Below, piece by piece: positions 25,405 to 46,544 of a stretch of DNA of 64,000 nt. This DNA comes from Podarcis liolepis (lineage: Eukaryota): the NCBI GenBank assembly GCA_965112155.1, contig OZ218112.1; one strand, 5' to 3'. Both the position numbers and the translations under genes were made by a program. Each line of letters begins with the position of its first letter. Positions within the stretch are counted from its first letter, which is position 1. A model generated the notes under the pieces. The model saw only the letters and a program-made list of their open reading frames with translations. It was not told the origin of the DNA and made no database searches.

Positions 25405-26311
25405 GGTGTCAGTATTCAGTACTGGTGAGTACCACCACAAAAACAAAACAAAAACTGAGTACAACTCCCAGCAAAGCACGAGTATGTTGCGTTTAGCCTG
25501 CACTGCTGTGAATACACCCTGCACTGCTTGTAGTACCAGGTATTGGGTTCCCATACCCCAACCCATGCAAATAAGAGACCAATGAGGCTGGTATTTGGAT
25601 CTAAGCAGGCCACAACTTTGTTGAATACAGATGAAAGAGGTTTGGCTTGGGCATGGGACAATCAAAATACTTCCGGCAAGGGGTGGATCTGAGGGAAGCC
25701 TACCTGCTCCGTCGGCTCCACCCCCTAATGCAGCCCAAGCCCCATCCTGCATCCCCATTAGCCTGGTGCAGGCTAGGATCCAGTTCCTGATAGGCAGAGG
25801 GGGGTTAGGCCCCCACCGCCTATCAGGAAGGGCACCACTGTTCCAGTTCCCTCGTCAGGGTAAAGCCTCTGGGGTCCTGCAATGCCGCAGCACTGAAAGG
25901 GGTGAGGGACTTGCAGATTCCAGTCTTCACTATTCACTACAACCACATTTCATCACTTAGCTCTCTCAATTTTCTGGGTTAAGTGTTATCCCCACCCCAC
26001 CCCCGGAAGCAATAAACATGGAAATGAGGACTAAGCTTCCACTAGATTCTGCTAGATTTCCAGAACTGGCTTTTATGTTCTGTGAAAGCTCAAATATAAT
26101 GTGGAAATTTACAGTTAGGGAAACAGAATAAACTGCCGTGTGAATGCAGTCATAAATGTACTAAATAAATACAATATCACCTTTCAATTAAAAATAAAGG
26201 CCTCAGTGTGAAATTCAAGTTCTGGAAATCATTCTGTTGCTTAATGTCGGTCAAGATCTTTTCAGCATAAAACCTCAGTGTTAACACCATGGGCTAACTC
26301 ATTCTGAGAAA

Positions 26312-28584
26312 GCCAAGTTAGATCTGGTCCTAACCAATGTTGATGACCTGGTTAGTGGGGTAGAAGTGGAAGGATCATTAGGCGCGAGTGATCATGCTCT
26401 TCTGAAGTTTACTATACAGCGGAAAGGAGCAGCCAAGCATACTAGGACTCAATTTCTTGACTTTAAGAAAGCCGACTTCATAAAACTTAGGGAAGTGCTG
26501 GGTGAGATCCCATGGACAGTAATACTAAAAGGAAAGAGAGTTCATGATGGCTGGGAGTTTGTTAAGAGGGAGATAGTAAAAGCACAACTTCAGGCAATAC
26601 CAATGAGACGGAAACATGGAAGGTGCCTAAAGAAGCCAGGGTGGCTATCTAAAGAACTTTTAACTGAGTTAAGATTAAAAAAGGATGTGTATAAAAAATG
26701 GAAAAGGGGGGAAACCACCAAAGAGGAATTCAAACAAATAGCCAGCACATGTAGACACAAAGTCAGAAAAGCTAAAGCACAGAATGAACTCAGGCTTGCT
26801 AGAGAGGTTAAAAGCAACAAAAAAGGCTTTTATGGGTATGTCCGTAGCAAAAGGAAGAACAAAGAAAGAGTGGGGTCACTCAGGGGAGAAGATGGTGAAA
26901 TGCAAACAGGGGACACAGAAAGGGCTGGACTCCTCAATGCCTTCTTTGCCTCAGTCTTCTCTGATAAAGAAAACTATGCCCGACCTGAAGAATTTGGAGC
27001 AAATGATTCAGCAGAGGAAACACAGCCCAGAATAACTAAGGAGATAGTACAAGAATACTTGGCTAGTTTAGATGTATTCAAGTCTCCAGGGCCAGATGAA
27101 CTGCATCCAAGAGTATTAAAAGAACTGGCAGATGTGATCTCAGAACCACTGGCAGTCATCTTTGAGAATTCCTGGAGAACAGGCGAAGTCCCGGCAGACT
27201 GGAGGAGGGCAAATGTTGTCCCTATTTTCAAAAAGGGGGAAAGAGAGGACCCAAATAATTATCGCCCAGTCAGTCTGACATCAATACCAGGGAAGATTCT
27301 GGAGCAGATCATTAAGCAAACAGTCTGTGAGCACCTAGAAAGGAATGCTGTGATCACCAATAGTCAGCATGGATTTCTGAAAAATAAGTCATGTCAGACT
27401 AACCTGACCTTGTTTTTTGACAGAATTACAAGCCTGGTAGATGAAGGGAACGCAGTGGATGTAGCCTACCTTGATTTCAGCAAGGCATTCGACAAGGTGC
27501 CCCATGATATTCTTGTAAACAAGCTGGTAAAATGCGGTCTTGACTATGCTACCACTCAGTGGATTTGTAACTGGCTGACTGACCGAACCCAAAGGGTGCT
27601 CATCAATGGTTCCTCTTCATCTTGGAGAAGAGTGACTAGTGGGGTGCCACAGGGTTCTGTCTTGGGCCCGGTCTTATTCAACATCTTTATCAACGACTTG
27701 GATGATGGACTCAAGGGCATCCTGATCAAATTTGCAGATGACACCAAACTGGGAGGGGTGGCTAACACCCCAGAGGACAGGATCACACTTCAAAACGACC
27801 TTGACAGATTAGAGAACTGGGCCAAAACAAACAAGATGAACTTTTTTGCACTTGGGCAAAAAAAATGAGAGGCACAAATACAAGATGGGTGACACCTGGC
27901 TTGAGAGCAGTACATGTGAAAAGGATGTAGGAGTCTTGGTTGACCACAAACTTGACGTGAGCCAACAGTGTGACACGGCAGCTGAAAAAGCCAATGCAAT
28001 TCTGGGCTGCATCAATAGGAGTATAGCATCTAGATCAAGGGAAGTAATAGTGCCACTGTATTCTGCTCTGGTCAGACCTCACCTGGAGTACTGTGTCCAG
28101 CTCTGGGCATCACAGTTCAAGAAGGACACTGACAAACTGGAACATGTCCAGAGGAGGGCAACCAAAATGGTCAAAGGTCTGGAAACGATGCCTTATGAGG
28201 AACGGCTAAGGGAGCTGGGCATGTTTAGCCTGGAGAAGAGGTTAAGGGGTGATATGATAGTCATGTTCAAATATATAAAAGGATGTCATATAGAGGAGGG
28301 AGAAAGGTTGTTTTCTGCTGCTCCAGAGAAGCGGACACGGAGCAATGGATCCAAACTACAAGAAAGAAGATTCCACCTAAACATTAGGAAGAACTTCCTG
28401 ACAGTAAGAGCTGTTTGACAGTGGAATTTGCTGCCAAGGAGTGTGGTGGAGTCTCCTCCTTTGGAGGTCTTTAAGCAGAGGCTTGACAACCATATGTCAG
28501 GAGTGCTCTGATGGTGTTTCCTGCTTGGCAGGGGGTTGGACTCGATGACCCTTGTGGTCTATTCCAACTCTATGATTCTATGAT
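26312..28584 (+). mobile_element. 5'-truncated CR1 LINE, young
   Basis: ORF2 starts in the endonuclease C-terminus (LDLVLTN...SDH) and includes the full RT. 3' UTR ends in '(t)ctatgat' repeats typical of CR1. Confidence 0.97.
26366..28511 (+). pseudogene. CR1 ORF2 reverse transcriptase, disrupted
   Basis: [46 protein letters not shown]. Frameshifting deletion near 27843 and a premature TGA at 28416-18; the frame continues QWNLLPRSVVESPPLEVFKQRLD to a stop at 28509-11. Confidence 0.95.
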
Positions 28585-45185: not shown

Positions 45186-45727
45186 CTTCCCCCCTGCTTG
45201 GTAAGCAGAAGTGACTCTGCTATGGGGTCAGGTTCACAGGGGCGCCCTTCCCACTACTTCTTGCTACTCACATACGGTGAATGGTGAACACTCTGAAACA
45301 AACGGCAAGTCCTCAATGCAGAGATCACAAATGCCAATAAATTTACAACTTGCAAGTCGCTTGCCAAGTGGCTCAGAATTCTGAAGGCAGAGTGAAAAGA
45401 AACATCTGTCCATATGGAATGGTATCATTGACATTTGTTACTTCGAATCATTCCCTTTTAGTACTTCCCAAATGTTGTTGTTCCATTCATACATATCCCA
45501 AACCTGTGGCCAGGTCCAGAAATCTGTTCCCAGCATTGACACAATCCACTGGCCCCACTAGCTGTGCATTCTGTAGGATGTGTGGAAAGGGGCACCTTTG
45601 TACACACAGCTCCAAGTGATTGGGAACCCTAAAAGTGAAATGGAGCATGTGCAATAGCACTAATATATGTGCATGTGTGTATGGATAATGTATTAGCAGT
45701 TCCATCCCTCACCTATGCTCAACCAGT

Positions 45728-45857
45728 TACAGATAGGTAGCCGTGTTGGTCTGCCATAGTCAAAATAAAAAAATTCCTTCCAGTAGCACCTTAAAGACCA
45801 ACTAAATTAGTTCTTGGTATGAGCTTTCGTGTGCATGCACACTTCTTCAGATACACA
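45728..45857 (-). mobile_element. Penelope-like element terminal-repeat fragment, 130 bp
   Basis: 10-bp TSD ctcaaccagt at 45718-45727 and 45858-45867; contains a minimal PLE-type hammerhead. Confidence 0.85.
45817..45854 (-). ncRNA. Minimal type I hammerhead ribozyme, Penelope-type
   Basis: Minus strand reads GUAU-CUGAAGA-A-GUGUGCAUGCACAC-GAAA-GCUC-AUAC: intact core, stem I GUAU/AUAC, palindromic stem II, palindromic AGCU stem III, CUC cleavage triplet. Confidence 0.85.
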
Positions 45858-46024
45858 CTCAACCAGTCACCTGTTACATGCAAAAGGCCTCTAAGTGACT
45901 TTAATGTTTTAAGAGGATAAGCATACACAACCCTCACAAAACCCTCAACAACATTGTAATAAAACCATGCAGGGTTTTATTTTAATCCGAAGAGCAACCT
46001 CCAATAAAGTAGCAAAAAACACAT

Positions 46025-46544
46025 GTGGGGCTACCTTTGAAGGTGACCCGGAAACTACAACTAATCCAGAACGCGGCAGCTCGACTGGTGACTGGGAGCG
46101 GCTGCCGAGACCATATAACATTGGTCTTGAAAGACCTACATTGGCTCCCAGTACGTTTCCGAGCACAATTCAAAGTGTTGGTGCTGACCTTTAAAGCCCT
46201 AAACGGCCTCGGTCCAGTATATCTGAAGGAGCGTCTCCACCCCCATCATTCTAACCGGACACTGAGGTCCAGCACCGAGGGCCTTCTGGCGGTTCCCTCG
46301 CTGCGAGAAGCCAAGTTACAGGGAACCAGGCAGAGGGCCTTCTCGGTAGTGGCGCCCTCCCTGTGGAACGCCCTCCCACCAGATGTCAAAGAGAACAACT
46401 ACCAGACTTTTAGAAGACATCTGAAGGCAGCCCTATTTAGGGAAGCTTTTAATGTTTGATGTATTACAGTATTTTAATATTTTTTGGGAAGCCACCCAGA
46501 GTGGCTGGGGAAGCCCAGCCAGATGGGCGGGGTATGAATAATAA

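Follow-up and report, generated by a model that had tools for sequence, protein, structure and literature searches.

A hammerhead-bearing 130-bp insert in Podarcis liolepis is probably a 5'-short Neptune-type Penelope-like element copied from uncut RNA

The 64,000-nucleotide stretch of Podarcis liolepis DNA analysed here (the window) contains a 130-bp insert with a hammerhead ribozyme motif, which raises the question of whether so small a unit is a self-cutting element in its own right or a piece of a larger one. A reading made from the sequence alone had described it as a recently retroposed unit, like a retrozyme or SINE, carrying a minimal type I hammerhead of the kind found in Penelope-like elements (PLEs). 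The hammerhead string given in that reading for minus strand 45854-45817, GUAU CUGAAGA A GUGUGCAUGCACAC GAAA GCUC AUAC, matches the sequence letter for letter, and the core that it called complete is present in full (C3-U4-G5-A6-N7-G8-A9, G12-A13-A14, A15.1-U16.1 and H17). An extra base before G10.1-C11.1 and a palindromic stem III strand are both found in this motif, and the claimed PLE kind fits the description in the available text of PMC4209133. This copy is the only hammerhead in the 64-kb window, with no second one near it, and 0/100 shuffles gave a match. A search of the insert with the Rfam hammerhead models, which the sequence-only reading had proposed, matched no family at E<=10, as expected because the motif is without stem III. 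The 130-nt insert folded no better than its shuffles (z -0.05); its predicted fold nevertheless contains stems I and II. When two copies were co-folded, the palindromic stem II formed a duplex of -25 kcal/mol, versus -2.5 through AGCU, and this ability of the stem II palindrome to duplex is without conservation in older hammerhead families.

The insertion could be followed in four DNA runs. The perfect 10-bp TSD (ctcaaccagt) reported for the two flanks is indeed there, with 130 bp between its copies (Table 1). In runs X3, X4 and X6 the contigs omit precisely 140 bp, and 10 letters can be assigned to either flank, which shows the TSD to be genuine; as this empty site is present in three of the four other DNA runs, the insertion is real and recent, and the recent retroposition that had been claimed is borne out. 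The contig of the fourth run, X1 (possibly the source sample), passes from the flank into the insert, and because X3 and X1 share an organism label, the locus appears to be polymorphic inside a single labelled species. In all four runs, loose ends whose flanks are unrelated lay at 45853/45854. The repeat stretches to 13 bp with one mismatch, and its 10 exact bp are shorter than the family mode of 12-13. Six-frame translation revealed no evident host exon adjoining the insert. The window also holds long open frames at 26285-28415 (+) and 46013-46456 (+), which resemble LINE reverse-transcriptase remnants (CR1-like and L2-like), and run X6 has about 16 extra bases relative to the window at 45475-45478. 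By itself, the single insert is useful at most as a presence/absence marker.

Table 1. Positions of the insert, its flanking repeats and its internal features in the window.
Feature	Position	Strand	Remarks
TSD copy (ctcaaccagt), element 3' end	45718..45727	+	Present once at the empty site in X3, X4 and X6
130-bp insert	45728..45857	-	+2..+130 of Neptune-type PLE leader (3' part of pLTR plus tail) after one non-parental T
First ten ORF codons, MADQHGYLSV	45728..45757	-	Parent ORF begins MADQHGYLS
PLE tail	45728..45761	-	+97 to about +130-135; tail-bearing copies begin here; TSD starts at +127..+139
U-rich tract	45762..45773	-	+85..+96; tail-less inverted partners begin here; loose ends at 45761/45762 in four runs
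Minimal type I hammerhead	45817..45854	-	Sequence; covariation in older families of the genome; 9,879 exact copies
Hammerhead stem I, GUAU/AUAC	45854-45851 with 45820-45817	-	
Hammerhead core CUGAAGA, then extra A	Extra A at 45843	-	
Hammerhead stem II, GUGUG-CAUG-CACAC	45842-45829	-	Then GAAA and palindromic AGCU; predicted cut after 45821 (between 45821 and 45820)
TSD copy, element 5' end	45858..45867	+	Sequence and empty site

A DNA search with the insert returned many copies of 95-100% identity, often beside an inverted partial copy, and some of them extended upstream into a GIY-YIG coding end. The parent is an array of 3,008-bp tandem units, two of which have an open 910-aa ORF with the hammerhead leader in front. 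This ORF matched the Pfam models RVT_1 (E 9e-12) and GIY-YIG (E 2e-5), both over cut-off, and the NCBIfam search gave only weak bacterial reverse transcriptase matches, all under cut-off. It also encodes a Cys-rich linker or Zn finger, with C-x4-C-x2-C and a further CxxC where GIY-YIG starts. By this linker feature, as defined in the available text of PMC8557442 and common to Nematis, the parent would be placed with the Neptune-type elements. The insert is 96% identical to the leader of an intact tandem element, L121, and is colinear with an element encoding reverse transcriptase as well as a C-terminal GIY-YIG domain in one ORF; the tandem units or pLTRs, inverted 5' partners and optional 30-40 bp tail of EN+ PLEs were all found. 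The claimed PLE link therefore holds, down to the linkage with RVT_1 and GIY-YIG coding sequence, found in the 3,008-bp units, that the sequence-only reading had suggested looking for. L121 (L121:792-6850; G000:C4, near 88.61 Mb) carries its two open 910-aa ORFs, which are identical, at a spacing of 3,008 bp, together with a 5'-truncated upstream unit and a last unit without the tail. The family looks currently active. A further locus, L082, was considered as a tandem full-length element and rejected, as it contains two unrelated short insertions.

With positions numbered so that +1 is window position 45857 and the cut is followed by +38, the first insert base is a T on the minus strand where the parent has A. 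The reported distance of 3 nt from the 5' end to stem I holds for the insert as a unit; its parental match begins 2 nt before stem I. At the other end, five bases of the TSD, its first on the minus strand (ACTGG; 45723-45727), are shared with the continuation of the parent sequence, a 5-nt microhomology that leaves the 3' boundary ambiguous by 5 nt. These ends make it extremely unlikely that the insert arose as a solo pLTR when recombination or deletion shortened a longer insertion, an origin suggested for such units in a rotifer in the available text of PMC3846280: the window copy is without that part of the pLTR which comes from the upstream 3' UTR, it begins with a non-parental base as many independent copies do, and its clean TSD has an exact empty site.

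How many such pieces exist was asked of the whole genome, where the 38-nt hammerhead has 9,879 exact copies and a 28-nt piece of the tail has 8,383, with reversed-pattern controls of 0 for each; the copy-number search that had been proposed thus yielded about 10,000 near-identical pieces. The youth of the family explains the near-invariance of the motif (9,879 exact copies). Likewise, the core was intact in 113/125 sampled hammerheads, so the intact core of the window copy is typical and reflects young age. Older families in this genome retain stems I and II through compensatory change. In 25 aligned motifs, made up of the window copy and 24 of the 30 relatives retrieved (six being dropped as near-copies or of odd length), pairing was 75.6%, 9/10 pairs had two-sided change and stem covariation was 0.48, versus at most 0.15 in slid controls; the core letters of this set were fixed in advance by the search pattern. 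Hammerhead families that are older and decayed, with a CUGAUGA core, different stems and low copy number, also occur in the genome (48 matches; L125-L154) and point to earlier PLE waves.

Family anatomy was described from 95 of the first 100 tail matches listed, lying in 90 stretches of the first 8 Mb of contig C1. A TSD of at least 8 bp was present in 82/95 of these copies (12-13 bp, the mode, in 56), and an inverted partner in 66/95. The inverted partners were without the tail and started at the U-rich tract near +96, about 35 nt before the tail ends, and this tract is likely a second reverse-transcription start site. The TSD overlapped the tail by at least 3 nt in 18/79 copies (5.6% expected), the overlap of the window copy being 5. 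Copy lengths were continuous, from under 40 bp to ORF-length, and short solo copies of about the window length made up 4-5 of the 95, so that a few hundred would be expected genome-wide. In the inverted pair L034 (G000:C1:439722-439945), which has a tail on both halves and a 12-bp TSD around the pair, both target strands appear to have been primed at the tail. The sole variant of the window copy relative to the bulk, T at +52, occurred in 56/15,176 copies. We considered it as a subfamily marker and rejected it, as it is sporadic and, in inverted pairs with T in one half (L155-L184), the partner has C in 16/20; differing halves of one insertion could reflect separate reverse transcription errors, separate templates or later mutation.

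This anatomy bears directly on the possibility that the 130-bp unit propagates itself as a retrozyme- or SINE-like element, whose RNA would be released or circularised by cutting of hammerhead dimers. Such a reading could draw on the very high copy number, the TSD of the unit itself and the core intact in 113/125 copies, on the existence of rare head-to-tail dimers (L097, with a 101-bp period, and L106), on the proposed derivation of animal retrozymes from PLE pLTRs (10.64898/2026.07.22.740005, as far as the available text goes) and on the fact that a Penelope promoter can be internal (PMC2377424, available text). We nevertheless regard it as very improbable. The unit is a piece of an autonomous element that includes the parent start codon and ten codons, and it is one of about 10,000 pieces whose lengths form a continuum and most of which, judging by the sample, sit beside an inverted partner. 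The tandem copies expected of a retrozyme array do exist, but same-strand hammerhead pairs within 500 nt were found in only 2/90 sampled stretches. Young age would by itself account for the intact core, and the sporadic T at +52 marks no short-element lineage; none was evident from this one marker. We would accordingly file the insert as a truncated Neptune-type PLE copy and not as a retrozyme. One of the rare dimers, L097 (G000:C1:5348646-5351673, minus strand), consists of two short leader units 101 bp apart, head to tail, each with a full hammerhead and both with the same private variant, and it is a natural candidate for a dimer-cleaving, retrozyme-like seed.

The retrozyme-like reading also predicts where copies should begin, as a cut or circular template would give starts at +38 or circular permutation. 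We mapped the 5' ends of 161 segments anchored at +60..+75 in the 90 stretches, which had not been chosen by 5' end, with the proviso that segments of the same insertion are not independent. None of the 161 began at the cut site (+37..+39), and only four ended at +35..+42 (0.0035 per base at risk), whereas 61 ended at -2..+7, just before stem I (0.080 per base at risk), a per-base rate about 23-fold higher. A weaker second peak lay at the stem II palindrome (+15..+26; 19/161). Apparent ends at -94 (29) and -89 (3) are artefacts of reference polymorphism; the former were counted as running on, and the latter raise the upstream rate slightly. Exact counts over the genome gave the same picture: extending the hammerhead pattern by six upstream bases (-3..+3) reduced the matches from 9,879 to 4,190, a 58% loss, and the next six from 4,190 to 3,490, a 17% loss that includes a known variant base, while six bases spanning the cut site cost only 7% (15,120 to 14,041). 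Because the end distribution and the genome-wide counts agree, we infer that most templates were uncut RNA, many of them ending just before stem I, and the absence of any start at +37..+39 among the 161 indicates that cleavage did not make the window copy or most others.

Why the ends should gather at that point is suggested by the parent, in which the first base of TATATAG is at -30 exactly and +1 falls within TTCAGT; this TATA-like box and initiator would place a transcription start at about +1, just ahead of stem I. A similar combination of TATA and Inr is described for rotifer Penelope pLTRs in the available text of PMC3846280. Against such a start, the one Penelope promoter mapped, that of D. 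virilis, is internal and TATA-less (PMC2377424, available text), so the window copy may keep some promoter activity. We predict that in this copy the hammerhead is no more than an inert passenger, because the copy has no upstream TATA-like box and the window holds no second hammerhead. The ends themselves peak at +2 (22/161) and +4 (13/161), with only 2/161 at A+1, and T replaces the parental A in 16/22 of the ends at +2, as it does in the window copy (p 5e-4). The peaks at +2 and +4 weaken the reading of +1 as the start, as does the finding that 30 of the 61 piled-up ends adjoin an antisense piece of the element at an inverted-partner junction, where fold-back or joining bias could also set the position.

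The same element and the same insertion are compatible with another origin of the pile-up, namely a 3' splice site, a reverse transcriptase stop, or preferred template switching or fold-back beside the palindromic leader. The bases just upstream of stem I in the parent do resemble a splice acceptor (...TTCTGTTTCAG|TGTATC fits a polypyrimidine tract plus AG), and an intron of D. virilis Penelope ends at the 5' side of helix I according to the available text of PMC4209133; however, 0/61 ends were joined to one consistent upstream exon piece. Bias in joining would account for the antisense pieces at 30/61 ends and for the weaker peak at the stem II palindrome, but partnerless solo copies end at the same place (L046, L048, L070, L110 and the window copy), the TATA spacing is exact at -30, and four copies (L094, L097, L106 and L116) continue from an end at -2..+7 by a jump to a different sense position in the element, which is what a genuine RNA end would give. 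On balance, we consider an origin of the pile-up in processing or joining bias unlikely.

We favour, with a probability of about 0.72, the explanation that an autonomous Neptune-type PLE gave rise to the insert as a recently integrated, 5'-short copy, likely reverse-transcribed from uncut RNA from the tail to the RNA start. In tandem parents, the upstream unit, through its 3' UTR, would supply the TATA-like box at -30 and the initiator (TTCA+1GT). The GIY-YIG endonuclease would make a staggered cut of about 10-13 bp, and priming by the target end would take place internally on the RNA, at the tail (+130-135), with the 5-nt microhomology as an aid in this copy. Still uncleaved, the hammerhead would then be copied through by reverse transcriptase as far as the end of the RNA, where an extra base reading as T would often be added; the cDNA end would be joined with no switch to a second template. 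The window copy and similar stumps are, to judge from their ends, likely run-off cDNAs from uncut RNA starting before stem I. A broader proposal, for which we hold the odds to be about even, is that thousands of stumps are run-off (strong-stop-like) cDNAs that map the Neptune start to 3 nt before the hammerhead, and that jumps from this end give rise to pLTR tandems and to rare short dimers (L097). If true, this would provide in vivo evidence, on the scale of the genome, that RNA undergoing reverse transcription carries the conserved PLE ribozyme in uncut form, and rare short dimers such as L097 could seed retrozymes.

The window insert is thus an ordinary copy of a known kind and not a new self-cutting element, and the family-level pattern matters modestly, as it bears on the role of the PLE hammerhead and on the origin of pLTRs and inverted ends. 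With its intact masters, its 5' ends gathered sharply ahead of the ribozyme and the lack of any at the cut site, this young family lends itself to a direct test. Compared with the EN+ Neptune-type PLEs described in the available text of PMC8557442 and PMC3846280, no structural difference was apparent: both have a single ORF with reverse transcriptase plus GIY-YIG and a Cys-rich linker, tandem units forming pLTRs, a TATA plus Inr-like motif in the pLTR, heavy 5' truncation, an inverted 5' partner, TSDs and a 30-40 bp tail overlapping the first codons. The sharp pile-up before the hammerhead is absent from those descriptions, and no paper reporting such ends at a PLE hammerhead was found in the part of the literature searched; we regard it as a refinement of the published PLE picture.

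The minimal type I hammerheads described in metazoan PLEs (Cervera and de la Pena 2014, PMC4209133, available text) share with the present motif the 4-bp helix I, the extra base between 9 and 10.1, G10.1-C11.1, the palindromic 15.2-16.2 and the lack of stem III, whereas here A occupies position 7 and the 14 nt of stem II form a perfect palindrome. According to the same text, metazoan PLE hammerheads are mostly single motifs from truncated PLEs, reptiles included, and the minimal forms cleave weakly as dimers and not at all as monomers. Non-LTR retrozymes (PMC7229834 and 10.64898/2026.07.22.740005, available text) have the same short, non-coding-sized type I hammerhead unit related to PLE pLTRs; they form tandem units of 150-450 bp with at least two consecutive hammerheads and are expressed as circles, unlike the window insert, which is a 130-bp monomer colinear with its autonomous parent. 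The protein of Poseidon from Anolis carolinensis (PAc) starts reverse transcription at two internal sites bounding the tail, with unprocessed RNA as substrate (Frangieh 2024, PMC11167929, available text), and the present family likewise appears to have two internal starts and no need for hammerhead cleavage. The PAc ORF starts at stem II, whereas the first ATG here lies about 60 nt past the hammerhead, and PAc primed without homology in vitro, whereas junction microhomology is modestly enriched here (the 18/79 at 3 nt or more). In its main point, the result from this genome agrees with the in vitro work on Anolis Poseidon and does not overturn it.
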